A stretch of 64,000 nt of DNA from Anaerolineae bacterium (GTDB lineage: Bacteria > Chloroflexota > Anaerolineae > Aggregatilineales > UBA2796), in the NCBI GenBank assembly GCA_020851855.1, contig JADZBY010000435.1, positions 1,095 to 65,094 of the forward strand, given 5' to 3'. Of this stretch, positions 5,703 to 54,387 are shown one piece after another; position 1 is the first letter of the stretch; each line of letters starts with the position of its first letter. The notes under the pieces were generated by a model. That model searched no databases, was not told the DNA's origin, and worked only from the letters and a program-made list of their open reading frames with translations. A program made the translations under genes and the position numbers.

Positions 5703-5744
5703 GATGTATGCTCAAAGGCTGGCTTTCTCTGCGACATGCTCCCT

Positions 5745-5970: not shown

Positions 5971-6036
5971 ACGCAACACACTAACGGCGATTCTGCTCCG
6001 CAAGTCGCACCAGTCGGACGCAAGAGGATTCCACCC

Positions 6037-6360
6037 ATGAATCACCGGCAAAGTGTGCAGGCCATTGCCCGGCGGTTGCCCCACCTTGAGCGTTACGACG
6101 TGGCCGAAGTTCTGGAAGTCGCCGCCGAAGTCTGGGCAAAGGAACTGGCCCGACCCGGCGGCGTGGTGAAGATCGGCAACCTGGGCAAGCTGCATGTGGA
6201 AGTGCAGCACATGCGCGCCGGGGGCGCGATCCGTCAGCGACTCGACGATAAGTGTGGGACGACTGCTCCGCCCACGCTGCGCCGCCTGTACTTCCGTTTT
6301 CGTCCGGCCCTCTGGCTGAGGGCGAGTGTGGAACATGCCCTTGAAGCGCAAGAAGAGTGA
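6037..6360 (+). CDS. HU/IHF-family DNA-binding protein
   Basis: This is the ATG 6037 part of ORF 5893..6360. It has an HU-like arm region: VVKIGNLGKLHVEVQHMRAGG...LRRLYFRFRPALWLRASV. Confidence 0.65.
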   Translation: MNHRQSVQAIARRLPHLERYDVAEVLEVAAEVWAKELARPGGVVKIGNLGKLHVEVQHMRAGGAIRQRLDDKCGTTAPPTLRRLYFRFRPALWLRASVEHALEAQEE

Positions 6361-6649
6361 GCTGTACACGGAGCGCCAGACCGTCAGCCTGACCCCGGAG
6401 CAGATGCGCCGCTTAAGAGAGCTGCGCTCCGTGCGGGCGCGCAAGGATGGCAGCCTGGTACACACCACCGACCTGATCCGCGACGCGGTCAACTACTACC
6501 TGGCTGCCCAGGAAGACCTGCCCGGCTCGCGGCGCGCCATCGCCAAGGGCATCGAGGCGAAGGTTGACGCGCTCGACGGCAAAGTGGATGCCGTCGCGCA
6601 GATGCTGGCAGTCTTCATCGAGCGTGTCACACGGCGGCGGGAGCAGTAA
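6335..6649 (+). CDS. ribbon-helix-helix (CopG/MetJ-like) protein, possible relaxosome accessory factor
   Basis: Contains RQTVSLTPEQMRRLRELR...TTDLIRDAVNYYL. It lies immediately upstream of the HUH-nuclease-like gene, 3 nt from it. Confidence 0.6.
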   Translation: MPLKRKKSELYTERQTVSLTPEQMRRLRELRSVRARKDGSLVHTTDLIRDAVNYYLAAQEDLPGSRRAIAKGIEAKVDALDGKVDAVAQMLAVFIERVTRRREQ

Positions 6650-6652
6650 GCC

Positions 6653-7687: not shown

Positions 7688-7704
7688 GCCGAAAGCGCCT
7701 GTCG

Positions 7705-31270: not shown

Positions 31271-33226
31271 ATGTCTGACTCCCGCTACCTCCACCTGATC
31301 CGGCAGGATTGTCAGCTCCCGCCTGGAACGCACGTCGTGGCGTACTGCCGGGACAGCGGCGGAGAGGAGCAGGAACGCTCCACCCTGCAGCAGGTCGACG
31401 TCATCCGCGAGTACTGCGCCCACCACAACCTCATCCTCGACCAGTTCTACGTCGACGACGCGAAAGAGGCGGGCAGTACCGAGCACCGCACCCAGCTCCA
31501 GCAGATGCTCACCACCCTGCGCACCCAGTTCCGCCAGATCAACGACCGCACCAAACGCCGCAAACACAGCCAGAACGCGCCCTTCGGCGTCATCTTCTGG
31601 AAATCGAACCGCCTGGGTCGCGACAGCATCGAAACGCGCTTCATCAAGGCCGACCTTCGCCTGCGCACCATCACGATCATCGATCTGAACCGGACCAGCA
31701 CCGGCGACACCGGGGCGGATGCGGTGCTGGAGGCTTTCCACGAGTGGCAGGACGAGACGTTCCTCGACGACGCCGGCGAGAATGCCAGTCGCGGCCTGGC
31801 ATCCATCGTCGGTATGCGCGATAACGATGCCGAGTTTCGCCGCCACAACCCGGAGTGGCCGACCAACGACGGGCGCTACCTGGGCATCCGGCCCGGAATA
31901 CCGCCAAAGGGCTTTCACGGCGAGAGCATCAAGATCGGGATACGCGAGCGCAAGCGGCGGCGCGGCGTCGAATCCGAGGCGCACATTGTCCAGCGCATCG
32001 TGCCGGACAAAGAGAGCGGCCTGTGGGCGCGCTGCCGGCTGGCCTGGGAAATGCGTCGCGAGGGCAAAGGCATCGCCGAAATCATGAAGGTGACCCGCCT
32101 CTACGGCACGGCAACCGCGTTCACGGCGTTCTTCGGCAACCGCATCTACACCGGCGATTTCGCCTATGGCGGCAAGGTGTACGAGAACTTCGTCGAGCCG
32201 CTCATCCCGCGCGAGTGGTGGGAAGACGAGCAGAAGAAGATGACCGCGCGCAGCGAAAAACAGAGGCAGCAGAGGTTAAACCCCAAGCTTGAGCCGCGCC
32301 GTATTGCCAGCCGCCATCTGCTGACCGGTCTCGTGTTCTGCAACCATGTCGATGGCGAAGAGCACCCAATGCTGGGCGACACCATCACTGAGAACGACGT
32401 GCGCAAGCGCTGGGACTTCTACATCTGCTCGGTCAAGAAGAACTCGCGCGGCAAAAAATGCGACTCCAAGCGCATCAGTACCCAGGCGCTCAACAAGGCG
32501 GTCGTGGACAAGCTGATGAGCGAGGTCCTGACCCACGCTAATCTGCGCCCGCTGGCGGATAATCTGGCGCAGGCGATGGTCGAGCGCAATCTGGATGCCG
32601 AGGCGCGCATCACCGCGGCCCGGAGTCGTCTGGACGAGGTGCGCGCGTCCATTGCCCGCCTGATGGACGCCATTGAGAAGTCGGGCCATTCATTCAGCAT
32701 CCAGCAGCGCCTGGAAACACGCGAAGCCGAGCAACGCGAACTTCTGGCAGAAATCACGCGCATGAACAAGCTCATCGTCAAGCCGAGCGACATCCCGAAG
32801 ATCAGCGACGAGCAGCTCACAGCCTTTATCGACAACATGCGGGAGACGCTGATGAGTGATGACGTGATGCTCGCGCGGGCAGCGATTGCCCGATTCGTGG
32901 CCAAAGTCGTGGTAAACGGCAAAACGGGAACGTTGTATTATACGTTCCCGTTTCATGATATTACTAGGAATGAGACTTTGCCCCTATGGGGCTTACGCCG
33001 TCACCGAGTATACAGCCTTGAAAAGTGCGCGAAGAAGGTCATTCGTTGGCTCAGTGACACGCTTCCTGCGGCAACAGCTGACTATTACGGGCCTCATCCG
33101 AAAGCGCAACGCAACGAGCTGATCCGCCAACGTTACGCAAACGGCGAGAATATCCCCAAGCTGGCAATTGCCTTTGACCTCTCGCGTGCGCGCATCCACC
33201 AGATTTTACACGGGCAACGAAAATGA
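31271..33226 (+). CDS. large serine recombinase (resolvase catalytic domain, recombinase domain, Zn-ribbon, coiled coil) with extra C-terminal sigma-70-region-4-like HTH
   Basis: Catalytic region VVAYCRDSGGEEQERSTLQQQ... and SNRLGRD. Zn-ribbon-like segment FCNHVDGEEHP...FYICSVKKNSRGKKC. Coiled coil ...RSRLDEVRASIARLMDAIEK.... The canonical end is ...VVVNGKTGTLYYTFPF, which is followed by about 91 further residues ending in NIPKLAIAFDLSRARIHQILHGQRK. Confidence 0.85.
   Translation: MSDSRYLHLIRQDCQLPPGTHVVAYCRDSGGEEQERSTLQQVDVIREYCAHHNLILDQFYVDDAKEAGSTEHRTQLQQMLTTLRTQFRQINDRTKRRKHSQNAPFGVIFWKSNRLGRDSIETRFIKADLRLRTITIIDLNRTSTGDTGADAVLEAFHEWQDETFLDDAGENASRGLASIVGMRDNDAEFRRHNPEWPTNDGRYLGIRPGIPPKGFHGESIKIGIRERKRRRGVESEAHIVQRIVPDKESGLWARCRLAWEMRREGKGIAEIMKVTRLYGTATAFTAFFGNRIYTGDFAYGGKVYENFVEPLIPREWWEDEQKKMTARSEKQRQQRLNPKLEPRRIASRHLLTGLVFCNHVDGEEHPMLGDTITENDVRKRWDFYICSVKKNSRGKKCDSKRISTQALNKAVVDKLMSEVLTHANLRPLADNLAQAMVERNLDAEARITAARSRLDEVRASIARLMDAIEKSGHSFSIQQRLETREAEQRELLAEITRMNKLIVKPSDIPKISDEQLTAFIDNMRETLMSDDVMLARAAIARFVAKVVVNGKTGTLYYTFPFHDITRNETLPLWGLRRHRVYSLEKCAKKVIRWLSDTLPAATADYYGPHPKAQRNELIRQRYANGENIPKLAIAFDLSRARIHQILHGQRK
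32922..32953. repeat. perfect 12-bp inverted repeat with 8-bp spacer inside the recombinase ORF
   Basis: AAACGGGAACGT (32922-32933), spacer tgtattat, ACGTTCCCGTTT (32942-32953). It lies exactly where canonical large serine recombinases end. Confidence 0.8.
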
Positions 33227-33265
33227 GCCAATAGCCGTCCGCTCGAACCCCACAGCATCGAGTAC

Positions 33266-33307
33266 ACGCGCCGCGCCACCGTTATGGTGACGTGGCGCGT
33301 TCGTTTT
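33266..33307 (+). terminator. rho-independent terminator after the recombinase gene
   Basis: An imperfect GC-rich stem, ACGCGCCGCGCCAC (33266-33279) pairing with GTGACGTGGCGCGT (33287-33300), is followed by TCGTTTT. Confidence 0.55.
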
Positions 33308-33551
33308 CAGTTGTATGGCGCGGAAATCACATCCATGGCGAGATGTAGCGCTGCATGCCCTTCCTGCTGAGAAGCGGGGTAGAATGATCGTGGTTTCCGT
33401 CTCGCTACCAGGGTTAGTATGTTCTACACATTCCTTCCCCCTTCTCGTTCTGCTCACGATCCGAAGTGATACTAGTGGAAATCGTCGTCTGTCAGATTGG
33501 GAGTCCGCTGCCTTGAGAGACACATGGTCCCCGAAGGGTGAAGGTGTCTGC

Positions 33552-34496
33552 TCAGGGGATATCCCATCGCGAGATGAGGAATCCGGGTGTTCCTACGCCG
33601 TAGCGACGCCGAAAATCATCCACAGTGGCAGCGTTCGTCAGAGGCTTGACCATCAGCGTACCCCCGCCGCGAGGCTCGGTCAAGAAGCCTGCACGAGCGA
33701 AGACGGCGACATCCGTGCGGTGGTCTACCCTGACCTGAACGTAAGGGGCGTCCACTTCATGGGCGATTGCAGCCACCGAGCCGACAGGGTCGACTCCATC
33801 CAGCAAGAGCAGATTCGTGATCTTCAGGAAGGTATCAGAGGCAGAAACGACCGCGTAACCAACCGCAGAATCTCCTCCGCTCAGCAGCCACACATCCGGC
33901 ACACTCTGGGCTCCACATTGTGCGAGGAATGGAAAGAATGGGGAGTGCCGCCGCGCGAATCCCAGGTGACCCTTGGCGATTCGCTCAAACACCTGATCGG
34001 CAAGCGCGAGGCGTTCACCGTCGGCACGCTCGGCTATCAGCGCGACCGGATGAGGCAGTGCATTCTTTGCAGTGAAAACGCTGGCGCTGGAGTGAACGTC
34101 TTCATAGCCGAGTCTCTTGTAGAGCGCGTGTGCCACACGATGCACATCGGCGCTCACAGTCGAATAACGAAGGCCCGCTGCGCGCAGTTGCGTGTGGGCT
34201 TCTGCGATCAGCCGTGATGCGACTCCCCGGCGGGCGAAGGCCGGGTGCGTACATATGGCCCACAAGCCCCCGACCTCTTCGGCACCCTGCGTTGAGACCA
34301 CCGGCAGCCTCAATACGCCCACCTGCCCGGCGATGGCCTCACCCTCTTGAGCGTACAGGGCGAGGAAAGGGAAAGGGCGCGGATCCTGCTGGCGGATCAG
34401 GGTTACCCGTTCGGGGGTGAGCGCGACGTCGAGGCACATCAGGTTCAGGTGCAATACGGCAAGCGGATCGACTGCATCGTACTCATGGATCTGCAT
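33552..34496 (-). CDS. GNAT-family N-acetyltransferase (Eis-like two-domain architecture possible)
   Basis: From ORF 33552..34589; the probable start is ATG 34496. It has the acetyl-CoA motif ICTHPAFARRGVASRLIAEA. Confidence 0.7.
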   Translation of the reverse strand: MQIHEYDAVDPLAVLHLNLMCLDVALTPERVTLIRQQDPRPFPFLALYAQEGEAIAGQVGVLRLPVVSTQGAEEVGGLWAICTHPAFARRGVASRLIAEAHTQLRAAGLRYSTVSADVHRVAHALYKRLGYEDVHSSASVFTAKNALPHPVALIAERADGERLALADQVFERIAKGHLGFARRHSPFFPFLAQCGAQSVPDVWLLSGGDSAVGYAVVSASDTFLKITNLLLLDGVDPVGSVAAIAHEVDAPYVQVRVDHRTDVAVFARAGFLTEPRGGGTLMVKPLTNAATVDDFRRRYGVGTPGFLISRWDIP

Positions 34497-34613
34497 TTCG
34501 AGTAGTCCTGTTGGTGCAGCTAGAATCCGCGAGAACGTGTGATTCACTGCGAGGCGTTTTCCCCGCACCACTTCTTTTTCGGCCTTCACATCCTCGTCAG
34601 CTCCGCTGCCCGA

Positions 34614-35147
34614 TCAGGGCGGCCCGCTGGACACGAGCGGCGTGACGACTATTCTGCCTTCCATGCCTGCCTGGCGGTGACCGGCGACGGTGCAGAAGTA
34701 GCTGTGAGTCCCGACGTGGGCCACCTCGACGAGAAACCTCGCCTCAGACGTCGCGCCCGCGCCGCTGATCATCGGAAGCTGCACGCCCAGGTCAGGAACA
34801 GCCAGATCGTGAGGCATGCCATCCCCATTGATGACTGTCAGGTGCACGACACTGCCCGGCGGTACAACGAGATCGGGATTGACCACACCATCGATGGCTC
34901 CGCCAACACCCACAAAGGCCATGCGCCCGTCGACAATGCCGGTCTCAAGGCTGAACTCGACCAGGGTCACAGCGCGCGTGGTTACCGGCCCGGGCATGGG
35001 CGATACTGCCGCCAGCGATCTGCCTGTAGACATCGTGGACCCGTCCGTGGGCGTCGCCACAACATGGTTATCGTGGGGCGAGCCGCAGGCCGTCAATCCG
35101 AGGGTTAGCCCGATCAGAAGGACGAAGAAAGCTGTACCTTGTCTCAT
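34614..35147 (-). CDS. cupredoxin (blue copper) lipoprotein
   Basis: From ORF 34614..35246. The start at ATG 35147 follows GGGAGA. It has a lipobox (LGLTACGS). The type-1 Cu ligands are present: GMPHDLAV ... YFCTVAGHRQAGMEG (Cys, His, Met). Confidence 0.8.
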   Translation of the reverse strand: MRQGTAFFVLLIGLTLGLTACGSPHDNHVVATPTDGSTMSTGRSLAAVSPMPGPVTTRAVTLVEFSLETGIVDGRMAFVGVGGAIDGVVNPDLVVPPGSVVHLTVINGDGMPHDLAVPDLGVQLPMISGAGATSEARFLVEVAHVGTHSYFCTVAGHRQAGMEGRIVVTPLVSSGPP

Positions 35148-35242
35148 CACATGGTCTCCCTGGCCGGGGCCGGGAAAAAGGGCTTGCGCCCCCTTTCCGC
35201 CCCTTGTGTACACGACACGAAACCCGATTCGGACCTCTACGT

Positions 35243-35764
35243 TCACATACCCCAGTACCGTGCTGTGGCCATCGTCAGCAGCGAGACAATCATCAGGACC
35301 AGTTCCACACGTTCCAGAGCCATGATCTCATCGTCCAACACGTGCATTTCGGCTGCCAGCGTCGCAGGCGGAGGCCCACCCGCCATGGCGATCTCCTTGC
35401 CCAACTGACCCAATCGTTGGCCACGGGGTCGGATCAGGATGAAACCGAGCAGGTAGGCCAGGATGGCGGCCACCGAGCCGATGGTGAATCCAATGCCCGT
35501 CGGCGTCTGAATCCAGGCGGTTTGCAGCCCACCAGAGCTGTTCCAGTAGAGCAGAGCGCCGGCAAGGATGGTCACGGCGCTCGAGATGTTCATGAACATC
35601 GGATAACGCCGCCGCTCGATGAACCCCTGCAGGAACTGCGGCCTGGCGGGACCCAGGCCCTTCACGGAAGGGGCAACAAAGTAGAAGTACAGGATGGCGC
35701 TGCCCACCCAGAACACACCGCCGACGACATGCAGGATACGCAGAAGGAGAATGACCGTGTTCAC
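35243..35764 (-). CDS. integral membrane protein (four predicted TM helices), function unknown
   Basis: 173 aa and hydrophobic. Its stop region overlaps the maximal ORF of the cupredoxin gene. Confidence 0.65.
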   Translation of the reverse strand: MNTVILLLRILHVVGGVFWVGSAILYFYFVAPSVKGLGPARPQFLQGFIERRRYPMFMNISSAVTILAGALLYWNSSGGLQTAWIQTPTGIGFTIGSVAAILAYLLGFILIRPRGQRLGQLGKEIAMAGGPPPATLAAEMHVLDDEIMALERVELVLMIVSLLTMATARYWGM

Positions 35765-36084
35765 GTTGAGCCTCCTCGGTTGGATGTTGCCGATAAACCC
35801 ATCGGCCGTACCGATTGCAACATTGAACCTTCGATCCGGCCCGGTGTGGGGTGATTACTCACCCAGGAACTGACCCAAAATGTGCTACAATGCCGGTACC
35901 ACTGCTGGCGGAATGCCGAATCGGATGATCGCGACCCACGTCACAGCCACGGACAACGAAGGCGTTTCCGCGAGCGCGCGCATTGGTCGTTCCATCTGAT
36001 CCGGGGCCGCCGGAGCACATGGCTTCGTGACTGTCTATCCCCGGATGTCGCGTCGACCTTGAGTCTCTTTGACAGCGGCTGCCC

Positions 36085-38667
36085 ATGATGGACGAACCGG
36101 GCTGTCCTGACTTCTTCGGTGATTGGCTCAAGCAGCGGCGCAAAGCCCTGGACCTGACCCAGGCAGAGCTGGCGCAGCGCGCGGGATGCAGCGTATTTGC
36201 CTTGCGCAAGATCGAATCGGGGGAGCGCCGACCGTCCAAACAGCTCGCCCAACTTCTGGCTGCATCGCTCGGCGTGCCGCCTGAAGACCGGGATACTTTC
36301 GTTAGGGTGGCGCGCGGTGAAGCCGCATCCGATCGGTTGCAGCGCTTTTCGGTTGTCTCAAGCGCGCCGCTCAGGCCCCTTCCCCCGTCCGTTGTTGGCC
36401 TTCATTCCGGTCTCCCGCTGATGCTCACTCCGTTCATCGGGCGCGAGCCGGAGCTGGCCGCCCTTCAGCGCTTGCTGGATGATCCGCTGTGCCGCCTCAT
36501 CACGCTGATCGGCGCCGGCGGCATCGGGAAAACACGCCTGGCCATGGAAGTTGCCTCCCGCGAGCAGGCGCACTTCTCCGATGGCGTCTTCTTCGTTCCT
36601 CTCGCGTCGCTCGGCTCGTCGGCGTACCTCGTCCCGGCCATTGCCGACGCCCTGGATTTCGCATTTCAGGGCCAGACCGAGCCGCGCATTCAGCTTCTCA
36701 ACCACCTTTGTCACAAGCGATTGTTGCTTGTACTGGACAACGCCGAACATCTGCTGGACAGTGTGAGGCTGTTCGCGGAGGTCCTGCAACATGCACCCGG
36801 CGTGAAACTCCTGGTTACGTCTCGCGAGCGGCTGAATCTGCAGAGCGAGTGGGTGTACGTGGTCCAGGGTCTGGCCGTTCCGCCCACAAATCAGGCACAA
36901 GGTGCAGGAGAATACACGGCCATTCAGTTGTTCGTACAGAGTGCACGCAGGACCGATGCGGGCTTTGAGCTGACAGAAGACGAACGCTCTGCCGTCGTCC
37001 GCATTTGCCAGCTCGTGGAGGGAATGCCGCTGGGCATCGAGCTGGCAGCCACGTGGGTCTCAGCACTGAGCTGCCGTGAGATCGCGAAGCAGATCGCGCA
37101 AGGGCTGGATTTTCTGGCAACGTCGATGCGCGACGTGCCCGCTCGGCAGCGCAGCCTGCGGGCGGTTTTTGACCATTCCTGGAGCCTGCTCAGCGCCGAT
37201 GAGCAGAGCGTTTTGAGTCGGCTGGCGGTCTTTCGGGGCGGCTTCGCCAGGGACGCGGCAGAACAGGTAGCTGGCGCTTCGCTGACCACGCTCCTGGCGC
37301 TGCAATCCAAGTCCTTGTTGCGGCGCAAAGGGCCTGACCACCTCGAGCTGCATGAGGTGGTGCGCCAGTACGCTCTGTCGCATCTCGAACGCAGCTCGGA
37401 CCACGAGGCAACGTGTCAGAAGCAGTGCCAATTCTACCTGACTCTGCTCCGTGATCAGGAGATGCGACTCCAGGGCACGGCCCAGCTTGAGACGGTGCGT
37501 AGACTCAAGGCAGAGATCGAGAACATCCATGTGGCCTGGGGTTGGGCCGTCCGGCACGGTGAGTTCTCGCTCATCGATGGGGCATTGCGGAGCCTGGGCT
37601 GGCTATGCCATATCGGTGTGTTATATCAAGAGGGGATCGATGAGATCGAGCTGGTGGTGCAGACACTGCCCCGCAGTTCAGAAGACCAGATGCACCGGAA
37701 GATACTCGGCAAGGCCCTGACTCAGCAGGGTATGTTGTACTTCCGCCAGGGCAACTTCCACCGTGCGATCCCTATGCTTGAGGAGAGCATCACGATCCTG
37801 CGCCCGCTCGGCATGGCGGCGTTGATGCCAGATCCTCTGGTCCTTTCCGGGGTCATCATGCACCTGAATGGTGACTTCGAGCGTGCACAGCGCTTGATGG
37901 AAGAAGCCTATGACAAGGCTCAGGAAGTGGGGGATCAATTCTACGCCGCGTATGCTCTGTTCAATCTTGGCTTCATTGCCGGCTTGCGGGGACAGTGCGC
38001 GGAGGGCTATGAACAGATGCTTGCCGGCCTGGAGTTGTGGCGCCAACTTGGCGATTCGAGTTCTCTTGCGATGGGGCTGAATTTCCTCGGCCTGACAGCC
38101 GTCCGCATGGGCCGTCTGGAAGAGGCGCAGGCTTTTTTGCAGGAGAGCCTGGCCGTGCTAACGCCGCTGGGGGATCGTTGGGGCCTGGGCAATGCCTATC
38201 GATTTCTCGGCCTGGCAGCGTTGAGGCAAGGCTTTGTCGACGACGCCATTTTGTTAATCCGCCGGTCCCTGGATTTGTTCGAAGGCACCATCACAGGCTG
38301 GGATGTGGCCTGTTCTCTGATCTATCTGGGCGAGGCAATCGGCGCGGCTGGACAGCTGACAGAAGCCGAGGGATTGTTGCGCCATGGTCTACGTATGGCA
38401 ATCGACATACCGGCATTGCCGCTCGTGCAGGATGCGCTTGCGGGGCTGGCGCACCTCTCTCTGGAGGCGGGCGAGGTCGCAACTGCCTGGGAAATATCCG
38501 CGATAGTAGAAGCGCATCCTGCGGTCGTGCACTGGACGAAGCAGCGCACCCGCCGCATCCGTGCTGAAGTGGAGGCCATGGTAGTTGCAGACCCGACTCA
38601 CCCATTCAAGTTGCCTGCCGAGCCATGCTCACTTGGCGCGCTGATCGAGAAGATAATCGGCTGGTGA
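36085..38667 (+). CDS. STAND-type regulator: XRE HTH, NB-ARC-like P-loop ATPase, TPR repeats
   Basis: N-terminal HTH LTQAELAQRAGCSVFALRKIESGERRPS. P-loop DPLCRLITLIGAGGIGKTRLA. LLLVLDNAEHL (Walker B). VEGMPLGIELAA. The C-terminal part is TPR-like. Confidence 0.85.
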   Translation: MMDEPGCPDFFGDWLKQRRKALDLTQAELAQRAGCSVFALRKIESGERRPSKQLAQLLAASLGVPPEDRDTFVRVARGEAASDRLQRFSVVSSAPLRPLPPSVVGLHSGLPLMLTPFIGREPELAALQRLLDDPLCRLITLIGAGGIGKTRLAMEVASREQAHFSDGVFFVPLASLGSSAYLVPAIADALDFAFQGQTEPRIQLLNHLCHKRLLLVLDNAEHLLDSVRLFAEVLQHAPGVKLLVTSRERLNLQSEWVYVVQGLAVPPTNQAQGAGEYTAIQLFVQSARRTDAGFELTEDERSAVVRICQLVEGMPLGIELAATWVSALSCREIAKQIAQGLDFLATSMRDVPARQRSLRAVFDHSWSLLSADEQSVLSRLAVFRGGFARDAAEQVAGASLTTLLALQSKSLLRRKGPDHLELHEVVRQYALSHLERSSDHEATCQKQCQFYLTLLRDQEMRLQGTAQLETVRRLKAEIENIHVAWGWAVRHGEFSLIDGALRSLGWLCHIGVLYQEGIDEIELVVQTLPRSSEDQMHRKILGKALTQQGMLYFRQGNFHRAIPMLEESITILRPLGMAALMPDPLVLSGVIMHLNGDFERAQRLMEEAYDKAQEVGDQFYAAYALFNLGFIAGLRGQCAEGYEQMLAGLELWRQLGDSSSLAMGLNFLGLTAVRMGRLEEAQAFLQESLAVLTPLGDRWGLGNAYRFLGLAALRQGFVDDAILLIRRSLDLFEGTITGWDVACSLIYLGEAIGAAGQLTEAEGLLRHGLRMAIDIPALPLVQDALAGLAHLSLEAGEVATAWEISAIVEAHPAVVHWTKQRTRRIRAEVEAMVVADPTHPFKLPAEPCSLGALIEKIIGW

Positions 38668-38825
38668 GGCCTCTGGTGGGGCCGTATCAGAGGCCGGCAA
38701 CCGAGTGGGCGCCCGCAACAGGCCTGGTCGACAGAAAGCGCGAAATCGAACAGATCGGCACGTTGCTGAGGCAGCCATCAGTGCGCTTGCAAGCCGTGTG
38801 TAGCCCGCACCTCAACTTCTGTTAG
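38625..38825 (+). pseudogene. short fragment resembling the N-terminus of another NB-ARC regulator
   Basis: ...LVDRKREIEQIGTLLRQPSVRL... mimics the FIGREPELAALQRLLDDPLCRL segment of the paralogs and then breaks off. Confidence 0.3.
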
Positions 38826-39560
38826 TCTCTTTGCCCTTGCGCGCTGCCGGTTCTCCCGGTCTCAAACGGCTGGTCTGATCCTTACCCAGATGAAGCGCTA
38901 CGGTTTCAGTCAGGAGGGAACAGTGCAGCTTCTGAACAAGCTTAGTGGGGGACTGCCTGCCCAGGCATTCGCCGCGGGCACCGAGCACGGCTAGGCGCTG
39001 GAAACGATGGAGTGGCTAGAGCCAGCGATGGAATAGTGCTACGTTTCAATGCTGACGGCGTTGTGCTGGTTACTCACATCGTCCCCGATAAGTGCCGTTC
39101 TCATCGTGCCGGTTTGACGGCACTCGCAACGTCATAGAGGTGCTCATATAGGGACCTCTTCTGGACAGAACTCGGCACGATGTCAATGTTGGTTTCCATG
39201 ACCAATCATAGTAAACAGCACAATACAGCCGTGGTCAGGACCTCAGAATCTTGGGGGCATGGGTTCACACGTCCGCTCAGCCCGAGTGAGAAACCGGTCT
39301 GCTGGACAAGGGAGAGAGAATCCGCACGGACAGGGTCAATGAGAGGTACAATGGAATCAGCGATGCGGACGATGGCAGACATCGCCGTCTGCCAGGTTAG
39401 GCGTCGGTCGCCACAAGTGGTATATGGTACCAGAGGCGGCGAAGGCGAGCTGTCTTCGAGGGAATGTACGCACCCAGTCGGCTATGTAAGAGTATGCATG
39501 ACCACAGAGGTAGCTTGCGTTATGCACCCAATTAAGTATACTGTTTTGCCTCTATGGGGT

Positions 39561-40990
39561 TACTCCTACAGCCGCACATAGGGTGAGCTAGAATGGAAGA
39601 AAGCACACCCGGTGTGGAGTAGCCAGGCATGAGAGCGGGGCAGACGGTTCGGGAATGGGAAGAGGGGCTGCGAGAGCTGCACACGCGAATCGGCAGATGC
39701 TTCAAGCGAGCGGAGCCGCGTGAGCGCGCGTATCGTTACATCCAGGGCCTGCTGAGCAACGTGCCGCGCAAGAACGGATGGCAGATGGCCGAGGCAAGTG
39801 GGGAATATGGGCCGGATGGCATGCAGCGCCTGCTGAACCGAGCGGTGTGGGATGTGGATGGGGTGCGCAACGAGGTACAGGCGTATGTAGCGGAGCACTT
39901 GGGGATGCCGACAGGCGTGCTGGTCATAGACGAGACGGGCTTTTTGAAGAAGGGCAAGCACTCGGTCGGGGTAAAACGCCAGTACAGCGGGACAGCAGGC
40001 GGAATCGAGAATTGCCAGATTGGGGTCTTCCTGGCCTATGCCAGCGAACGCGGTTACGCCCTGGTGGACAGAGCGCTGTACTTGTCGAAAGAATGGGTGG
40101 AAGACCAAACACGCCGCCAAGAAACGCATATTCCTGAAGCGGTCGGCTTCGCCACCAAACCGCAACTGGCCCGAATGCTGCTAGAACGTGCCCTGGCAGC
40201 AGGTATTCCGCATCAGTGGGTCACGGGGGATTGCATCTACGGCGATGACTGGCGGTTGCGGACCTGGCTGGAGAGGCAACGCCAATGGTATGTGGTTGGG
40301 GTGACACGCGACCATCTGCTCTACTAGGATGGCGCTCGACAGCGCTACGATGACATCGCCGCCACGTTGCCGCCCCAAGCCTGGCAACAACTGAGTTGCG
40401 GCAGTGGGAGCAAAGGGGAGCGGCTCTATGAGTGGGCGCTGGTCCCGTGGCGAAACGTGGACTATCCGGACGACGAATTGCACGCGTTCCTCGTTCGACG
40501 CCACCCGACGGACCCCACGGAGGAGGCCTATTTCCGCGTCTTTGCGCCAGCGGGCACACCTCTCCACACGCTTGTGCAGGTCGCTGGACGGCGCTGGACG
40601 ATTGAAGAATGCTTCGAGTTGGGCAAAGGGGAGGTTGGTCTGGACGACTATGAGGTGCGCCACTGGCTGGCCTGGTATCGCCATATCACCCTGGGCATGC
40701 TCGCTCTGGCCTTTCTGGCTGTGATGCGTTATGAAACCAACTCACGGCTGACAAAAAAAGGCCACACGCCAGCCAGCCAGCACTCATCGCTTTGACCGTA
40801 CCCGAGCTGCGCCGTCTGCTCCACGCGCTACTCTGGCTCGTCCGACCGGCGGTTCATCACGTGCTTGCCTGGTCTCGTTGGCGCCGTCAACACCAGTATC
40901 GCGCCCAGCATGCTCATCGCCGTCGTCAACAGCGCTTCTTCGAACAGATGGCCGGATTGCCGTAACCAGCTATGTGCGGCTGTAGGACTA
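39561..40990 (+). mobile_element. IS701-family insertion sequence (1430 bp)
   Basis: It has 21-bp terminal inverted repeats with one mismatch: TACTCCTACAGCCGCACATAG (39561-39581) versus the reverse complement of CTATGTGCGGCTGTAGGACTA (40970-40990). Confidence 0.75.
39629..40965 (+). pseudogene. IS701-family DDE transposase, disrupted (in-frame TAG plus a frame change near the 3-prime end)
   Basis: ORFs 39629..40327 and 40367..40795 share one frame and are separated by TAG at 40325-40327. The conserved C-terminus LTVPELRRLLHALLW...LAWSRWRRQHQYRAQHAHRRR continues in another frame to TAA 40963-40965. The frame change lies near the A7 run at 40753-40759. Confidence 0.75.
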
Positions 40991-41002
40991 GTGCTGCGTT
41001 CC

Positions 41003-42168
41003 TCAAATACGATAAACAAAATGACGTCGGTACTGACGAGGTGGCGGCGTGGGCCGTTGCCAGATCCAGGGTTTGGCTCGCTGATTGAGTTGTCGCGTAG
41101 CACTGCGGATAGCGTGTTCAATTTCGAAATGGTCGGCAAAGGTTTGACCGGCAAGGGCATCGCGACGCAAGAGCCGCCACCAGCCTTCCTGCAAGTTGAG
41201 CCAACACGCCCGTTTGGGAATGGGTACCTGATGCACACGCGGATGGTCGTCGAGCCAGGCGCGAACGGGCGCGCTGGTGTGGCTGGACAGATTATCCATG
41301 ATGACATACAGATCGCCTTCCGGATTGGCCTGGTCAACAGCGTTTAGCAGGTGCAGATAGCCCTGCGTATTGCGAGCGGGGGCGGTCAGCGTCAGTTCCT
41401 GTCCGTCCCTGACCCGCAGCGCACCGTACACCCACACTTTATCGTCGCCTCGACTGTATTCCAGAGGGGCCTTAAGCCGATGGCCGTCACGCGACCAGCC
41501 CGGCGCGGGTGGAAAGGTCCGTGGGCTGATTGGGCCTAACTCATCCACACACACCACGCTGCTCTTCAGCGGGGGTGGGGTGTAGAGCGTGACGACCGCC
41601 GTCCTTTTGGGACGAAGTCGGGATCCGTGCTATCTGCCCAGGAATGGGCGCGTCGCCAAGGGATGCCTTCCTTGAGAAAGATCCGACGGATCTGGCTGCG
41701 TTTGACGCGAATACCACGTTCCTGTGCTACCCGAGCCAACGCATTCAGTGTCCAGTGTGCCTCACCGTGCTCCTCCTCGACATGCAGTTCCCCATCGCTT
41801 TCACGAACCAGTTGACCAGGCGGCGCTTGCCCGATGAGGCTGACAATGGTGCTGCGCTCCTGTTCGGTCAGCCGCGCTTTTCGTCCTCGTCCAGGAGCAT
41901 CCTGTAAGCCATCGAGGCCCAGCTCATTGAAGCGGCTGACACGCTCCCGAACCGTCTGGGGATGGCAAGCCAGGTCGCGCGCGATGACCTGCGTCGTTTT
42001 GCCCTCCCAACTGGCAACCACCATTTGTGCACGTCGAATCACATCCGCAGGCCCATGGCGGCTGCCTGCCAATTTGCGTACGCCTCGTTCTTCTCCTGCG
42101 TCTGCGGCTGCCCATGCATGGATGTATTTCGGCATGTCTGCCTCATCCTCCTCACCTACGCTGCTCAT
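41003..42168 (-). CDS. IS630-family transposase (orfA HTH part 41566..42168, orfB DDE part 41003..41557, joined by a -1 frameshift)
   Basis: The orfA frame ends ...STDPDFVPKGRRSSR*. The -1 frame continues ...PKRTAVVTLYTPPPLKSSVVCVDELGPIS into the DDE domain (VIMDNLSSHTS..., CWLNLQEGWW). Confidence 0.8.
41605..41611 (-). other. canonical -1 slippery heptamer C_CCA_AAA at the orfA/orfB junction of the IS630 transposase
   Basis: The plus strand reads TTTTGGG at 41605-41611, so the minus strand reads CCCAAAA, which fits the X_XXY_YYZ pattern. Slipping there gives the fused reading ...FVPKRTAVV.... Confidence 0.5.
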
Positions 42169-42198
42169 ATCTTACCGTATTTGAGGAACGCAGCATTA

Positions 42199-42432
42199 CG
42201 GGGGCGTGAAACGGTGCAAACGCTACCCAGCGTGGAAGACACTGTTCGCGGCCTCGTCCAGCGGCTCCACAGCACCTTCCTCAGTTCTCCCCCGTGCAGA
42301 CGTTCAACCGCCGAACGCGATGATGTCATCCGAGACAAGTACACTGGCGGCCTGAGCATCCCCAAGCTAGCGAGAGAGTATCGCCTCTCGCGGGCGCGTA
42401 TTCACCAGATTCTGCACCGACGACATCGATAG
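42199..42432 (+). pseudogene. 3-prime part of a small sigma-70-region-4-like HTH gene split by the IS701/IS630 pair (5-prime part at 39522-39560)
   Basis: Deleting 39561-42198 joins ATG 39522 ...MHPIKYTVLPLWG in frame to RGRETVQTLPSVEDTV...GGLSIPKLAREYRLSRARIHQILHRRHR. The restored ORF is 91 aa and aligns without gaps to residues HDITRNETLPLWGLRRHRV...IPKLAIAFDLSRARIHQILHGQRK of the recombinase. Confidence 0.6.
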
Positions 42433-47636: not shown

Positions 47637-50162
47637 ATGGTAGCTTATCCTGCGGCACAAACAACATGTTTCGTTGGCAGAAGCACTGAGCTAGACGATC
47701 TTGCTGGATTGATGAAGAATCCGCTCTGCCGCTTGCTCACGGTACTTGGCCCCGGCGGGATCGGCAAGACGCGAATTGTGCAGGAGTTCGCCGCTAAGCA
47801 TCATGCGCTGTTTTCGGATGGCGTATACATCGCCTATTTTCAGGCGGTGGCTTCCCCGGATTCCATTGTGCCAACTATCGCGGAAGCGCTCGATCTGCGA
47901 TTTCAGCCAGGCGAGGATCTGCAAGTGCAACTTGTTAGTTATCTCCGCGGCAGATCTTTACTACTGGTGCTCGACAATTTCGAACATTTGCTGGATGGCG
48001 TGTCGATTGTCGGCGACATCTTGGCGTCGACATGCGCGGTTAGGCTGCTGATAACCTCCCGCGAACGACTGAACTTGCGAGAAGAATGGGTCTATGAGAT
48101 ACACGGCTTGGATTATCCGATAAACGACACCGTCTCAGACATCGAACGCTTTGCCGCGGTGCAGCTATTCGTCCATAGTGCCCGTCGCATATATCCCGGT
48201 TTTCGCCTGACACAGCCTCATAAGTCGCCCATCGCGCGCATTTGTCGCATAGTGGGCGGGATACCTTTGGGGATTGAATTAGCCTCGGCTTGGACACGGA
48301 CGCTGCCCTGTGACGAGATCGCTCGTGAAATTGAACGCAGCCTCGACATCCTGGAATCATCGGCCCGCAATGTGCTGCCCCGCCACCGAAATATGCGTGC
48401 AGCATTTGAACCCACGTGGAATCGCCTGTCGGAAGATGAGCGCAGCGTGTTCACGAAACTGTCAGTATTTCGTGGTGGTTGTACTCGTGAGGCTGCCGAA
48501 TACGTAGCTGGGGCGACACTGCGCACCCTGTCGACGCTGGTAGATAAATCCCTGCTGCGGTTGGATGCAAATGGGCAACGTTATAGCATCCACGAACTGC
48601 TGCGGCAGTACGGCGAGGAGAGACTCTGTTCAGCCTCCAATGCCCAGAACGAGACGCTCGACCGACATTGCGCCTATTATATGCGCCTTCTTGGCGAACA
48701 AGAGAACCATATCATTTTTCTGGGACGGCAGAAAGAAGCCATCGAAAAGATCGACAACGATCTGGAAAACGTGCGTGTCGCCTGGCGGCGGGCAGTCACG
48801 CAGGGCCGCCTTGAGGAGATCTCCCAGGCCGCCGAGGGGCTGTGGAGTTTCTATTGAATGCGAGGGCTGCACCAGGAGGGTGTAGATTTTTTCCACTGGT
48901 CAGTGGAGTGCCTTCGCAAAAACGCTCCTGGAACCGAGGAAGATCGCCAGCGAGTCGTGGCCATATGCCTGGTGGCGCAGGGGCAGTGCTTGCTGTCTCT
49001 GTCTAGAAAGCGCGCACGCGTTCTCGCCGACGAAAGCCTCGCCATGCTACGTCCCCTACCGGCCGAGAGAGCAACCATCATAGCTCTCAAGCTGGCAGAG
49101 GCCTTTGCCACCGATGATTCGGAACGGATGCGGCTCGCGCGGGAAGCACTTGACATCGCTAGAACGAGTGAGTCCGGGTGGTGGCTTCCGAAGTGCCTCA
49201 TGGATCTGGGGTATCTGGCGATGGACCGCGGCGACTACGTCGACGTGAAGAACCTGGTGTGCGAGGCCCGCTCCCTCTATCAGACAACAGGCAACCCTGG
49301 GCTGGATGTACAGGCCCTGCTGATGCTGAGTGAGGCGGCGATGTTTCAAGGCAGCTACGATGAGGCGCGGCAAGTCGCGCAAGAGTGCCTGGCGGTCGCC
49401 CAAGACTTGGGTTATAGCGCCGCCGTATGGTGGTCGCACGAGCGGGCCGGCCACGCAGCGCTGCTACAGGGAGATTACCTTGCCGCGCAGACACATTATC
49501 AGACGGCACTGACTGTATGTGAAGATCTGGGTGACCAACAGGGCGTTGCCTTTCAACACAGCGGCCTGGGTTTCGCGGCCTGTGGCTTAAGGAATGACGC
49601 GGAGGCTCGTTCCCATTTCTTCGAAGCGCTCCAACTTGCCCAAAGGTTCGAAAACGTCGACCTGATTGCGGATATCATTGGTGGGATGGGTTGGCTTGTG
49701 GCAAACGTCGGCGACATGGAAGGCGCCCTGCGACACGCTGCCTTCGCGCTAAATCACCCTGCCAGCAATCGGTTCGCACGAATTCGTTTGACCAGTGTAT
49801 TCCAGATGGCAGAAAAGGCGCTTCCACCAGAAGCATTTGAAGCAGCAGTGGAACAGGGCAAAGCGTTTGATTTTGATCACGCAGTTCAGACGTTGCTCGC
49901 CGAATTGAGTCGACCATTGCTACATAACGCCGTCTCTGTCGCCGCCACCCATGCACCCCAGAACTTGTTTGACCCACTCACTGAACGCGAGTTGGAGGTG
50001 TTACGGCTGATTGCCGATGGGCTATCCAATTACGACGTCGCCATACAGCTCTTTGTCGGCATGAGCACAGTAAAGACGCATGTGAACCGAATCTTTAGCA
50101 AACTGAGTGTGAAGAACCGGACGCATGCCGTTGCACGCGCACGGGAATTGCGCTTGCTGTAA
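47637..50162 (+). pseudogene. NB-ARC/TPR regulator with C-terminal LuxR-type HTH, interrupted by a single in-frame TGA
   Basis: ORFs 47637..48857 and 48858..50162 share one frame and are separated only by TGA at 48855-48857. The junction AAEGLWSFY*MRGLHQEGVDFF aligns with ALRSLGWLCHIGVLYQEGIDEI of the 36085 paralog. It has the P-loop DPLCRLLTVLGPGGIGKTRI and the C-terminal HTH LTERELEVLRLIADGLSNYDVAIQLFVGMSTVKTHVNRIFSKL. Confidence 0.75.
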
Positions 50163-50718: not shown

Positions 50719-53700
50719 TTGTCCCATCTCGAGCTGTTTGTACTTGGAACGCCCTATATTCAGCGCGACGGCCTTCCTGTGAAGTTCGAGCGCCGACACG
50801 CCATGGCGTTGTTCGTGTATCTGGCGGTTACAGGTACTCGGCACGGGCGCGATACGCTAGCCGCGCTGTTCTGGCCTGAAGATGATGAAGCACACGCCCG
50901 CGCCGCGCTACGGCGGATGGTGAGCTCCATCAATAAGTCCATTCCCAACGTGGTCAGCGCCAACCGGGAGACAATCGGTCTGGGTCGTGATGGCGATTCG
51001 ACGCTCTGGGTGGATGCCCATCACTTCCATAATTCCCTGGAAGCGTCTCGAAAACATGATCACCGCGAAACCGAAGTCTGTGCAGCCTGCCTGAAAACAC
51101 TGACTGAGACTATCGCGCTGTATCGGAGCGACTTCCTGGCTGGTTTTACGCTGCGTAATACGCCCACCTTCGACGAATGGCAACTCTTCCAAACAGAAAC
51201 GTTACGGCATGGGTTGGTCGGCGCGTTGGAGCGGTTGGTGCGTGGTCACAGCGACCGGCATGAGTTTGAACCGGCCATCAGTTATGCCCGTCGCTGGCTG
51301 GCGGTAGATCCACTCGATGAAGCAGCCCATCGCTCTCTGATAGCCTTGTACGCCGGGGTAGGCCAGCGTCAAGCGGCGCTGCGCCAGTATGCCGAATGCG
51401 TGCGACTCCTGGAACGTGAACTGGACATTCCTCCACAGCCAGCGACAATGCAACTTTTCGAGGACATTAAAGAAAACAAACACATGGTGCTGAGAGCACC
51501 AATTGGCCTTCCTTCACGGCCTGGCACAGATAGGCGAGAGTGGTCTCCCACCGGCACGATGGGTCCCACAGGAATGACGCATGCTGTCCTACCATTCGCA
51601 CTCCTTGACCGGATTATGCGCGGTCAACTCGTAGGCCGCGAACAAGAGGCAGCCGAGATAAACGTGCTCTGGGACCGTGCCGTCTCCGGCGCAGGACAGG
51701 TACTGCTCATCAGCGGTGAGGCGGGAATCGGCAAAACGCGGCTGGTTCGCGAAGTGGCGTCTCTGGCAGAAACTACACGCGCCCGAGTCCTGATCGGCCG
51801 GTGTGATCCTGAGGGAAGCGCCCCTTATGCTCCCATCTCTCAGGTGATTCGGGCTGACTTTGACCAAGGTGTTGATGGTGCACAGCTGCCGCCGGACTAC
51901 ATCCTGGCTGACCTTATCGCCTTTGCGCCCCAACTAGACCAACGCTTCCCGGAGATTCCGCCCAATCCACCGCTTGATCCGCATGTCGAGCGTGAGCGCA
52001 TGTTCGACAACTTCGTTTCCTGGTGCGAGTGGGCGACGGCGCATATACCAATGTTGTTAGTCATTGAGGATCTGCATTGGGCCGATGCCAGCACGTTATC
52101 GTTGTTACGCTACCTTGCTCGTCACGTGCATAACGTCAAGCTGCTCCTGGTCATGACGTATCGTGATACAGAGATCGAACTGATAGAGGCCCATCACCTG
52201 AAGAACGCTGTACTCGATCTTAACCGCGATCGGCTTGCCACGTTCATGAGCTTGCCGTGCCTTAGCCGAGAACAGACCCATGACCTGCTGGCGACCCTGT
52301 TAGGAACAGAAGTGGGTGTAACAATGGAATTGCTCGACCGCATCTATCATGAAACGGAGGGCAATCCATTCTTCACGGAGGAAGTCTGCAAATCCCTGAT
52401 TGAAGAGGGCAAGCTCTATTTTACGGGCGGTTATTGGCGACGATCTGACATCGAAGACATAGTGATTCCGCAAAGTGTCAGAGCAGCGATCCTATCTCGT
52501 GTGGAGAAACTACCCGCTGCTGTTCAGGATGTGCTGCGAATGGCAGCGATCCTTGGACGAGAGTTCGATTTTGCGACCTTACAGGCGATGAGCGAATGCG
52601 ACGAGGAGACGCTAACCGCGACACTTGAGCATGCTGAACGAGTGCAACTCCTTACTGAGACTCAGCAGGCGGGCCGTATCCAGCTTGTATTCGCTCATGG
52701 CCTGATCCCATTTGCCTTGCGGGAAAGCCTGAGCGGGCTTCGCCGCCAGCGCTTGCACCGGCGAGCTGCAATCGTCATTGAGCGTCAGCGCCCCGATGAT
52801 CTGGAAGTATTGGCCCATCACTTCTTGACAGCCGGCGAACGTGATAAAGCATTGGAATACTCCTACCGAGCCGCGCGGCGGGCTGAAGCCATCTACGCCT
52901 ATCAGGAAGCGCTATTCCATTTTCAGAATGCGCTGCGGCTGGTAGAAGATGGCATACGAGGCGGTCTGCCACGAGAAATCCTTGAGCGTTTGGGTGATGT
53001 ATATGCGCTGATGGGCGAGCATGTACAGGCAATTCCCATCTATCAGAAGGCGATGGAAGAAGGGGAAAGACCGGACGAGGCAGACCCGATGGCGCTTGTG
53101 CGACTGCATCGTAAGCTCATACAGACGTTTGCCGGGCTCAGAGACTACGCTGATGTACAGCGTAACAGGGCAGCGCGACAGTCCAGCGTGGATACCGGTT
53201 TGCAGCTCATCCAGAACACACCCCACCCGCAATCCGTGCTGTTCTTAGCGACATTGGCTCGCGAAGGCCGCTTCGCCGAGTCCGAACCGAACTGGCAAGC
53301 TATCGAGCACTACGCCCAAACCGCTATCACCATGGCAGAGAAACTGGATTCATCCACCATTCTGGCATCTGCGCTGGGGGCGCTCATGGATGTCTATCGT
53401 GAACGCGGCTTGTGGCGAGAGCGAGTAACGGTTGCACACCGTCGCCTGGCCCTGGTTGATGATCCGCGTTTCGACAACTTACGTGATCGCGCGGACATTC
53501 TGAATGAGACTGGTGAGGCGCTCTTGCGAGTCGGGGAGGCTGTTCAAGCCATATCTTTCTTGCTTGAGGCTGAGAGAATTGGCGAGCAAATTCGTTCTGT
53601 TCATCCCCAGTTCTACTCGTTGCAGCTCCAAGGAGAATGTTTCTTCGAGCTCGATCGTTGGGATGAGATGCTTCAGATCGAGGCAAGATGGGAAGCGCTT

Positions 53701-54387
53701 CAACAGCGCTATCCGCACCAGCAGATCGGCAGAATCTGTTTCTACTGTGGTGTAAGCAGTAGTGTTCATTCATTGCGCGGTGAGGTAGAGAAGGCAAGGG
53801 CGAAACGGGATGAAGCTGTGAACATGATGACTAGAGCCTCGGGAAAACCTGTCGAAGAATGGACCGCCGCACCCTACTACTACTGACTGAGCAAGATGCT
53901 GCAAGCAGAGGGCGAGTTCGCCCTTGTGACCCAATACATGGAGAAGGCTCTTCATTCTCCACTGTGGTTTTGGGGAAAGTTCAACCTCTATGCCTTACTG
54001 ATCGACACAGCCGCGCAGCAGCGCGACCTATTAGCGCTGCGCCAGTATATGGTGCCAGCAGAAGAAAGCGCGCTGCAAAACGATCACCACTTGTATATCG
54101 GCGTTGCCTACCGCGCCAAGGGCGTCATGTATCGGCTGATGAGCGACTATCGAGAGGCCGAATTGTGGCTGACGAAGGCACTCGAAGTCTTTGAGAAGTT
54201 GCAGACGCGCTGGCAAATTGGGCGCACTTTCTACGAGCTCGGCGAACTGGCTCATCTGCAGGACAATACACTTGCCGCATACGGTCACTATTCCAGGGCG
54301 CTGGCGAGTTTTGAGGCTCTTGGCGCAGTGCCAGACGCAAAGCGAACTCGAATCGCATTAGGCACGCTGAACATCACTGCTCAATGA
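50719..54387 (+). pseudogene. SARP/AfsR-type regulator (winged-helix DNA-binding domain + BTAD + AAA ATPase + TPR) interrupted by a single in-frame TGA
   Basis: ORFs 50719..53886 and 53896..54387 share one frame. The only stop is TGA at 53884-53886, giving ...EEWTAAPYYY*LSKMLQAEGEF.... The downstream part continues the TPR-like repeats. The BTAD region reads LYRSDFLAGF...DEAAHRSLIALYAGVGQRQAALRQY and the Walker A motif is ISGEAGIGKTRL. Confidence 0.75.

Follow-up and report, generated by a model that had tools for sequence, protein, structure and literature searches.

The LSR1 recombinase gene carries a predicted attachment site in its 3' end

The window analysed here is a 64,000-nucleotide (nt) stretch of contig JADZBY010000435.1 (C438 in this report) from the Anaerolineae bacterium assembly GCA_020851855.1. 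It contains the gene of a large serine recombinase, LSR1, whose protein ends in a helix-turn-helix (HTH) module. Sequence comparison indicates, with a probability that we put at about 0.78, that the LSR1 gene holds the attachment site of its own element (attP) in its 3' end, that the HTH module forms the P' side of this element, and that integration splits the gene. Comparisons within this genome and with related genomes make such a split-gene-at-attP mechanism a well-supported proposal.

In this arrangement, the site would consist of the recombinase core, a palindrome, a P arm (32954–32978), a core (32979–32991) and a P' arm, the latter being the start of an 80-amino-acid (aa) HTH module (32992–33226). 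On a free circle or in tandem elements, recombinase and HTH would form one open frame, as they do in the window. Recombination with a tRNA-Glu gene would split this frame by a crossover in the core. The integrated recombinase would then retain its catalytic and DNA-binding parts and terminate in a short stub encoded by the tRNA, the P arm would restore the tRNA 3' end, and the HTH open reading frame (ORF) would move to the opposite end of the inserted element. Stand-alone HTH genes would correspond to P' modules at other joints, beside recombinase remnants or recombinase-less arms.

The 13-nt core, in which the joint between recombinase and HTH lies, matches exactly, in reverse complement, the 3' end of the tRNA-Glu(ttc) gene of the same genome (discriminator, acceptor strand and T-stem), located on C746[14,86]. 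The 5.1-Mb assembly holds five exact copies of this 13-mer, against about 0.15 expected by chance, and two more with one mismatch; all five exact and both one-mismatch cores sit at joints where a left arm meets a right arm. The left arms are of three kinds, namely the 3' end of LSR1, the 3' end of a second large serine recombinase family (LSR2) and a repeated non-coding region (Pc), and so are the right arms (HTH subfamily 1, HTH subfamily 2 and the tRNA-Glu body). The seven joints combine LSR1 with HTH-1, Pc with HTH-1 (twice), a left arm denoted x with HTH-2, LSR2 with tRNA-Glu, an LSR2 fragment with HTH-2, and Pc with HTH-2. Three joints are found on the contig of the window itself.

The P arm of LSR1 is homologous, in position and in sequence, to the (T/A)TCTAGG arm (coding SDLSRNST) of relatives that target tRNA-Glu. 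On the other side of the core, CCGAGTA at 33004–33010 mirrors the TACTAGG of the P arm. The resulting layout, TACTAGG-N10-core-N12-CCGAGTA, has the same geometry as the joints of the related genome G031, which read ATCTAGG-N11-core-N13-CCTAGAT and follow the same core logic with the tRNA-Glu sequence of that genome.

Related recombinases exchange their tails at the joint

A set of 120 homologs, 42–58% identical and from metagenome genomes of Anaerolineae/Aggregatilineales, was compared. The proteins are alike up to the motif ...GTLYYTFP(F/L) and a further 8–14 residues, after which their tails diverge into classes. About 34 of them end in ...DLRGFEPLTSTVRL and about 10 in ...PTGLEPVSSP; analysis with ARAGORN reveals that in these two classes the ORF continues, in antisense orientation, into a complete tRNA-Ala(cgc) or tRNA-Glu(ttc) gene, respectively. 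About 28 continue for 60–90 residues with one of three HTH subfamilies, and the remaining homologs have other short tails or are truncated. The near-identical recombinases at loci L064 (HTH tail), L084 (tRNA-Ala tail) and L067 (unrelated DNA) share their DNA up to GACCTGAGGG and diverge thereafter, which places the break at the border between acceptor and T-stem. The element-side arm holds a copy of the tRNA 3' end, and it is this copy that is predicted to restore the tRNA after insertion. These alignments establish that the joint is modular and that it mimics a tRNA end. The attB motifs of large serine integrases lie about 5 bp closer to the centre than those of attP, and a shift of the motifs on the attB side was recognized by eye in the sequences of the tRNA-Ala cases.

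A further recurrent tail class follows a core of the tRNA-Ala type, reads ...(A/T)AATCGAACA... (protein ...LQSN...) and is not of the HTH type. It comprises loci L057, L050, L063 and L082 and proteins P0021, P0041, P0048, P0051, P0061 and P0063. ARAGORN detected no tRNA in L057 and L082, the two of the four loci that were scanned, and the partner of this tail may be a third kind of partner site.

HTH modules mark the left ends of integrated elements

In two genomes the other end of a tRNA-integrated element could be located. G036 has an HTH ORF 24.5 kb upstream of its recombinase/tRNA-Ala joint (profile E 1e-26), and G040 has one 35.5 kb upstream of the equivalent joint (profile E 1e-25), in both cases on the same strand and contig. 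Each is the single strong HTH match and stands where the other end of the element is expected. An exact 14-mer repeat of the tRNA-Ala end was not present at the left ends, which were found by the HTH profile instead. At both, the sequence past the core is TCTCAGTTCCGTT-AACTAGGCATAT; its last 12 nt encode the HTH residues L-T-R-H-M and repeat, in inverted orientation, the ATATGCCTAGTT of the recombinase arm (codons Y-M-P-S). Inverted-repeat arms also occur at L152 (9 of 9 positions, p<0.003), at L153 (a perfect 16-nt repeat) and at the G031 joints (8 of 9). A half-site thus accounts for the (Y/L)-(P/T)-R-(Y/H) motif that all HTH tails conserve close to their N-terminus.

Tandem arrangements are observed as well. 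A 140-kb region of G032 (Candidatus Flexifilum breve) carries, on one strand, LSR2-HTH, LSR2-HTH, LSR2 remnant-HTH and LSR1-tRNA-Glu, and every joint contains the tRNA-Glu core of that genome. The reading frame of the last HTH is that of LSR1 (LTLT-FDITRLPS..., as in the tail of homolog P0076) and not that of the LSR2 remnant directly upstream. This HTH is therefore assigned to the element to its right, which has the LSR1 at the tRNA as its recombinase. G035 has two LSR1-core-HTH joints 53 kb apart. The HTH modules at left ends, the inverted-repeat arms, the frame in G032 and the joints in G035 imply that the fusions arise on the free element and at tandem joints; left-end HTH modules, inverted arms and arrays are all directly visible in the DNA of these genomes.

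Arrays of 10–11 HTH-headed cassettes on one strand, with a spacing of 1.3–19 kb, occupy G033:C20:1-88795 (L204–L208) and G031:C11:324000-418000 (L196–L200). In both, every cassette has a near-identical arm, ACTTTCAAATACAGTACAATATAATTGTTCGAACGGG, before it and TCGCCGCACGTATCCTAGATATTTC after it, and the same joint is present in the two genomes. The cassettes lack a recombinase, and their joints are near-identical over 65 nt. Their cargo includes NB-ARC-TPR-LuxR, NACHT, WD40, FGE-sulfatase and cyclase-AAA16-TPR genes.

The HTH tail and its copies

The original prediction had aligned the C-terminus of LSR1 to an ORF pieced together from 39522–39560 and 42199–42432, and this homology is confirmed by BLASTP with the last 90 residues (33 of 82 positions identical, 40%; E 2e-16). 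Several details required revision. The alignment, described as gapless, contains two gaps (6 gap positions); the homology, said to set in a codon past the palindrome, begins at residue 8 (T/V-LPLWG) in BLASTP and 24 nt past the palindrome in the DNA. The ATG at 39522 is probably not the start used by the family, since the copy on C362 lacks it and the three intact copies (C438:65.7k, C362 and C498) use another, common ATG whose TG opens the 13-nt block and which reads ATGCCCCTATGGGG. Joining 39560 directly to 42199 does not reproduce a true excision of the insertion sequences (IS) that lie between them: the IS pair sits at TTAC, and intact C498 reads MPLWGYGGRETV. With the IS removed, a run of 5 G in the window copy stands against 6 G in C498, so that the window copy is frameshifted.

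This copy near 39.5 kb belongs to a distant second subfamily, HTH-2. Two stand-alone copies are closer to the LSR1 tail: that at C438:65734-65985, 640 nt beyond the end of the window, has 87% aa and 84% DNA identity, and that at C362:9571-9816 is 90% identical in aa sequence; the HTH body is 84% and 82% identical in DNA to the stand-alone copies. The DNA homology of the tail to its closest copies extends from 32977–32979 to 33307, approximately 80 nt past the stop codon, and includes a hairpin, read from the sequence, followed by TTCGTTTTC, which together look like a terminator. At least 13 members of the HTH family are present in the genome.

Domain searches place the tail near two known HTH types. 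The isolated tail matches HTH_7 (PF02796; LSR1 residues 610–648) with 24.0–24.4 bits, a marginal score given the cut-off of 23.8, and the full protein scores 21.3 bits; Mor (PF08765) reaches 12.9–16.4 bits on the tail, with a cut-off of 24.9. Among 12 members of the HTH family, Mor matches eight (counted at E<0.01) and HTH_7 matches seven. A profile search of the PDB with the tail returned Mu C as the top match (E 0.0016) and Tn552 Bin3 as the third (E 0.07). The tail follows the pattern RNxxIxxxYxxGxSxxxLAxxxxLSxxRxxQI, which is like that of the Mu Mor/C and resolvase HTH_7 domains, with scores at or below the curated cut-offs. The structural model of the tail consists of four helices (pLDDT 78.7), and a fold search with it gave generic three-helix HTH matches only (best E 0.33). 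An Xis-like domain had also been considered for the tail, and no Xis-type Pfam family matched it; we know of no sequence family that defines the recombination directionality factors of serine integrases. The HTH had been called atypical for this enzyme family, which is correct for characterised serine integrases and not for the LSR1 clade, where about a quarter of the homologs carry it; the extension is thus common in its subfamily, and that subfamily is not a well-described one. Our guess is that the HTH would bind DNA as an accessory or regulatory domain, such that the properties of the recombinase would differ between the free and the integrated state.

Alternative explanations

The original prediction offered two readings of the boundary, the fusion of a small regulator gene to the recombinase and the capture of a host gene by integration at its 5' end. 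Its view of the boundary as a recombination-related joint, and of the tail as a separable module, is retained here, and neither reading fits as it was stated. If a small HTH regulator gene with a tRNA-like 5' end had acted as a secondary attB, the tail would be host-encoded (B'). Secondary sites and repeated targets are indeed used by serine integrases, the genome holds multiple copies of the HTH family, the stand-alone copies possess an ATG, an upstream region of their own and a terminator, and the dyad at the joint of the window does not reach significance on its own. Such a capture is nevertheless quite improbable, because the HTH 5' end mirrors the recombinase arm with the spacing of an attP, the left ends of the tRNA-integrated elements in G036 and G040 are occupied by HTH ORFs, in-frame fusion recurs for three HTH subfamilies and two recombinase families, and the third HTH of the G032 array (joint J3) fits the frame of the right-hand recombinase and not that of the one fused upstream. 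A regulator fused once, as a permanent C-terminal domain with no role in the crossover, would agree with the open 651-aa frame, with several homologs of 640–665 aa of the same architecture, and with HTH_7 being the type of DNA-binding domain found in small serine recombinases. We judge it very improbable: close relatives differ exactly at the joint, near-identical recombinases carrying tRNA, HTH or other tails after it; the joint copies the tRNA 3' end and tracks the tRNA sequence of each host; the same tail stands behind unrelated left arms; and the type of tail is not congruent with the recombinase phylogeny.

The joints might also be attC-like sites of recombinase-less cassettes mobilised in trans, in which case the fusion in the window would be incidental and the tail without a role for LSR1. 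The recombinase-less arrays of 10–11 HTH-headed cassettes in G031 (C11) and G033 (C20), with their near-identical 65-nt joints, are in line with this, as are the window segments 32992–39546 and 39560 to 65.7 kb, which are bounded by such joints, and the many cassette HTH ORFs that, read by eye, have no obvious start codon. We regard this as unlikely, as the HTH keeps an open frame that fits the type of recombinase encoded by its own element and the annotation of the tail in about a quarter of the database recombinases argues for selection on the fused product. It overlaps with an attP inside the LSR1 gene and does not exclude it.

Several observations weigh against an attP within LSR1. The dyad in the window is weak, with 6 of 7 matches at homologous positions and p about 0.2 in a generic inverted-repeat test; because it is not significant alone, the assignment of the attP layout rests on homology. 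With TA or AT at its centre, the site would have a palindromic dinucleotide, an uncommon feature among serine integrases that act directionally. No left end of the LSR1 element was found on the contig, and C438:1-32343 contains neither an HTH nor a core. The ATG of the stand-alone copies overlies the start of the core, and a conserved region of 300 nt precedes them; the model predicts neither. G031 does not have the HTH subfamily of the window, and its arrays use another subfamily and a second type of left arm. The activity of the site in the window, like the exact point of strand exchange, is something that we infer.

Known systems and possible function

The characterised large serine integrases (phiC31, Bxb1, A118/LI, TP901-1 and phiRv1) have N-terminal resolvase, recombinase and zinc-ribbon domains and an attP of about 50 bp with inverted outer motifs, and phiRv1 targets a repeated chromosomal element. 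The LSR1 family differs from them in being very divergent, in its intragenic attP, in a tRNA target whose 3' end is restored, and in the additional C-terminal HTH. Integrons were considered as a functional analogy for the cassette arrays only, and membership among them was rejected, as the recombinases are of the serine type and not tyrosine IntI enzymes, and the joints are copies of tRNA ends with inverted arms of the double-stranded type and not folded attC sites. In a literature search of incomplete coverage, no account was found of serine integrases with both an intragenic attP and an HTH tail.

The principle has a published precedent in Dehalococcoides, and the finding is more than a domain fusion. 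The 3' end of dsiB invariably overlaps the att site, and the C-terminus of its product varies (McMurdie et al. 2011, PMC3146451); the authors suggested that a complete, or fully functional, gene may exist only in the circular form or where a neighbouring island supplies a 3' fragment, and many of the ssrA islands have no integration module (PMC3146451). Both systems have a Chloroflexota host, the 3' end of a tRNA or tRNA-like gene as target, and tandem islands. The LSR1 family shares the DsiB-type trait of a recombinase ORF whose 3' end runs into the att repeat and whose C-terminus depends on its neighbour. Integration at a tRNA 3' end is seen for the relatives and for LSR2 of the same genome, while the LSR1 of the window has the tRNA-Glu copy and adjoins an HTH; tandem islands, some of them without an integration module, occur in G032, G031, G033 and G035. 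This likeness is drawn from layout and description and not from sequence relatedness. The DsiB islands target ssrA and not tRNA-Glu and tRNA-Ala, and they have a six-gene integration module with a small partner recombinase, DsiA. No small recombinase of this kind was seen next to LSR1, where no search for DsiA homologs was made. What is new with respect to DsiB is the use of tRNA-Glu and tRNA-Ala as targets, the sharing of one site by two recombinase families, the large arrays of recombinase-less cassettes, and the 3' fragment, which is identified here as a conserved in-frame HTH ORF (three subfamilies, two recombinase families) that doubles as the P' half-site.

Two other systems invite comparison. 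The SCCmec/CcrAB arrays at orfX (rlmH) likewise insert next to one conserved half-site, regenerate the site and form composite tandem arrays that include recombinase-less elements, a comparison drawn in PMC3146451. By contrast, their target is the 3' end of a protein gene, the recombinase gene does not extend across the att site, and no domain can be swapped. In mycobacteriophage BPs and its relatives, attP lies inside the repressor gene and immunity depends on integration (PMC4557955). BPs resembles the arrangement proposed for LSR1 in having an attP within a coding sequence, with integration changing the C-terminus of the product and thereby its behaviour. It differs in that its integrase is a tyrosine enzyme, the repressor and not the recombinase is the gene that is split, and the effect of the split, loss of a degradation tag, has been established by experiment.

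We tentatively consider a further possibility, doubtful at present, that the split gene serves as an integration-state switch. The full-length enzyme would exist only in the free or tandem state and the HTH-less enzyme when integrated, setting the direction or the level of recombination, and the HTH would perhaps bind the conserved palindrome next to attP. At the same sites, these recombinases would also be able to assemble recombinase-less cassettes, with many STAND NTPases among them, into integron-like arrays next to the tRNA genes of Aggregatilineales/Anaerolineae.

Genome engineering values large serine integrases highly as tools, and their directionality normally requires a separate factor. 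An attP inside the integrase gene, with removal of a DNA-binding domain on integration, suggests a built-in dependence of the enzyme on the integration state. The present comparison would fill a question left by the 2011 Dehalococcoides work, namely the nature of the missing 3' fragment of the recombinase, and it points to tRNA-targeting, tRNA-restoring serine integrases being widespread in Chloroflexota. A multi-copy family of apparent small regulators would be explained as modules of recombination sites, the variable C-termini of LSR1-type recombinases should be annotated as dependent on the joint, and the loci of this type make attP/attB pairs available for testing.

The palindrome beside the site

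The palindrome described in the original prediction, AAACGGGAACGT-N8-ACGTTCCCGTTT, is perfect and lies inside the recombinase ORF, with its centre about 48 nt upstream of the joint. A crossover at the palindrome was ruled out, as the homology of the copies and the divergence of the tails both begin 24 nt downstream of it. It is nonetheless maintained throughout the family as a paired element. Folded as RNA, it has an energy of -18.7 kcal/mol (z -3.8). Across 41 loci (alignment A3), 78.8% of the cells are paired against 73.3% in shuffled alignments (0 of 500), slid controls are 29–50% paired, and 39 cells carry double changes against 12.3 expected, statistics that are inflated by the relatedness of the sequences. 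The compensatory changes partly alter amino acids (T/F versus A/L; GGCAAAA/TTTTGCC in L079). The palindrome might be an accessory protein-binding site next to attP, which is a guess.

The recombinase protein and the surrounding window

Table 1. Features of the window discussed in the text (window coordinates unless a contig is named).
Feature	Position	Strand	Basis
Plasmid-like module of the LSR1-carrying element: ParM-like actin (ALP_N) and 971-aa protein	4240–10620	+	Same pair in homolog P0002
Methyltransferase-like ORF and glycosyltransferase-like ORF	Directly upstream of LSR1		ORF listing
LSR1, large serine recombinase, complete ORF of 651 aa, in frame into HTH tail	31271–33226	+	ORF and Pfam
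Perfect 12-8-12 palindrome, coding KTGTLYYTFPF	32922–32953		Inside LSR1 ORF
Putative P arm (recombinase side), coding HDITRNET, TACTAGG at 32962–32968	32954–32978	+	Homology to relatives' arm
13-nt core TGCCCCTATGGGG, joint lies here	32979–32991		Reverse complement of own tRNA-Glu(ttc) 3' end
HTH body, subfamily HTH-1, read as P' side; Mor/resolvase type	32992–33226	+	Homology, Pfam
Conserved 3' flank of HTH gene, GC-rich hairpin (about 33266–33300) then TTCGTTTTC	33227–33307	+	Homology to C438:65.7k and C362 copies
Pc, repeated non-coding region of about 300 nt before stand-alone HTH copies	39251–39546	+	84% to C438:65446-65753, 79% to C423
Second joint of the window, core variant TGCCTCTATGGGG	39547–39559		C438:40641, one mismatch
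Two adjoining IS at TTAC just past core: IS701-like 39561–40990, IS630-like 40989–42198	39561–42198		Terminal inverted repeats I8, I2; ORFs
IS-split HTH copy body, subfamily HTH-2, frameshifted pseudogene	42199–42432	+	Comparison with intact C498

The coordinates of the features are collected in Table 1. LSR1 has a Resolvase domain (PF00239) of 38.1 bits, with a cut-off of 23.3, and its residues R27-D28-S29 and Q34 (serine nucleophile motif) are invariant in 16 homologs. The zinc beta-ribbon (PF13408, Zn_ribbon_recom; 23.8 bits, cut-off 25.3) and the Recombinase domain (PF07508; 16.3 bits, cut-off 21.1) score below their Pfam cut-offs; precomputed PF13408 matches are present in most homologs. 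A search of the PDB with the single LSR1 sequence found no match, and a profile of the LSR1 family matched only 3G13 (E 1.5e-5).

Leftward of LSR1, the window contains the ParM-like gene, the gene of the 971-aa protein and a glycan cluster; homolog P0002 is preceded by AAA_25 (964 aa) and ALP_N genes that match the pair. To the right, two segments, 32992–39546 and 39560 to the 65.7-kb joint, are each closed by a further joint and carry GNAT, STAND-type regulator and radical SAM genes and a kinase-nSTAND-WD40 gene. The joint in the window may represent an intact attP or the boundary of two elements in tandem, and a tandem array is favoured over a free plasmid. The ends of C438 show no link to C746, and in an empty-site comparison the GNAT gene downstream of LSR1 had no match in 30 relatives. 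STAND-type NTPase regulators in these joint-bounded segments lie at 36085–38667, 48858–50162, 50719–53886 and 58198–62919; they are of the HTH_3-NB-ARC/NACHT-TPR, LuxR-TPR, BTAD-AAA16-TPR and kinase-nSTAND1-WD40 types, and represent the kind of cargo found in the arrays of the relatives.

The Pc region is present at 39251–39546 of the window, at C438:65446-65740, and on C423 and C595, with 79–84% identity. The 20 nt at its end (AAGTATACTGTTT) are similar to the LSR2 P arm, as seen by comparison with the arm on C746 (GAGTATACTCCGT). The region yielded no Rfam family, sigma-70 promoter consensus, terminator or similarity to either recombinase. An attempt to reach attL through the upstream region of the paralog retrieved other stand-alone copies only, and the one candidate, C423, was discarded as a decayed copy adjoining C595. 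The two contigs adjoin because the last 130 nt of C595 are the reverse complement of the C423 end, and together they hold two decayed HTH joints in tandem.

LSR2 is unrelated to LSR1 and matches the Pfam families Resolvase with 69 bits and Recombinase with 22 bits. An LSR2 element occupies the tRNA-Glu gene on C746, where its ORF runs through ...EEYTPLPLWG up to the joint and ends with FEPQFQP inside the tRNA. Outside the window, copies of LSR2 are found on C746, C312, C454, C17, C602, C133 and C94; those on C454 and C17 end beside tRNA-Arg genes. On C94, the LSR2 arm is joined to the flank of a ParA gene with a CTCC-N8-TA-N8-GGAG dyad, and this joint is possibly the free attP of that element.

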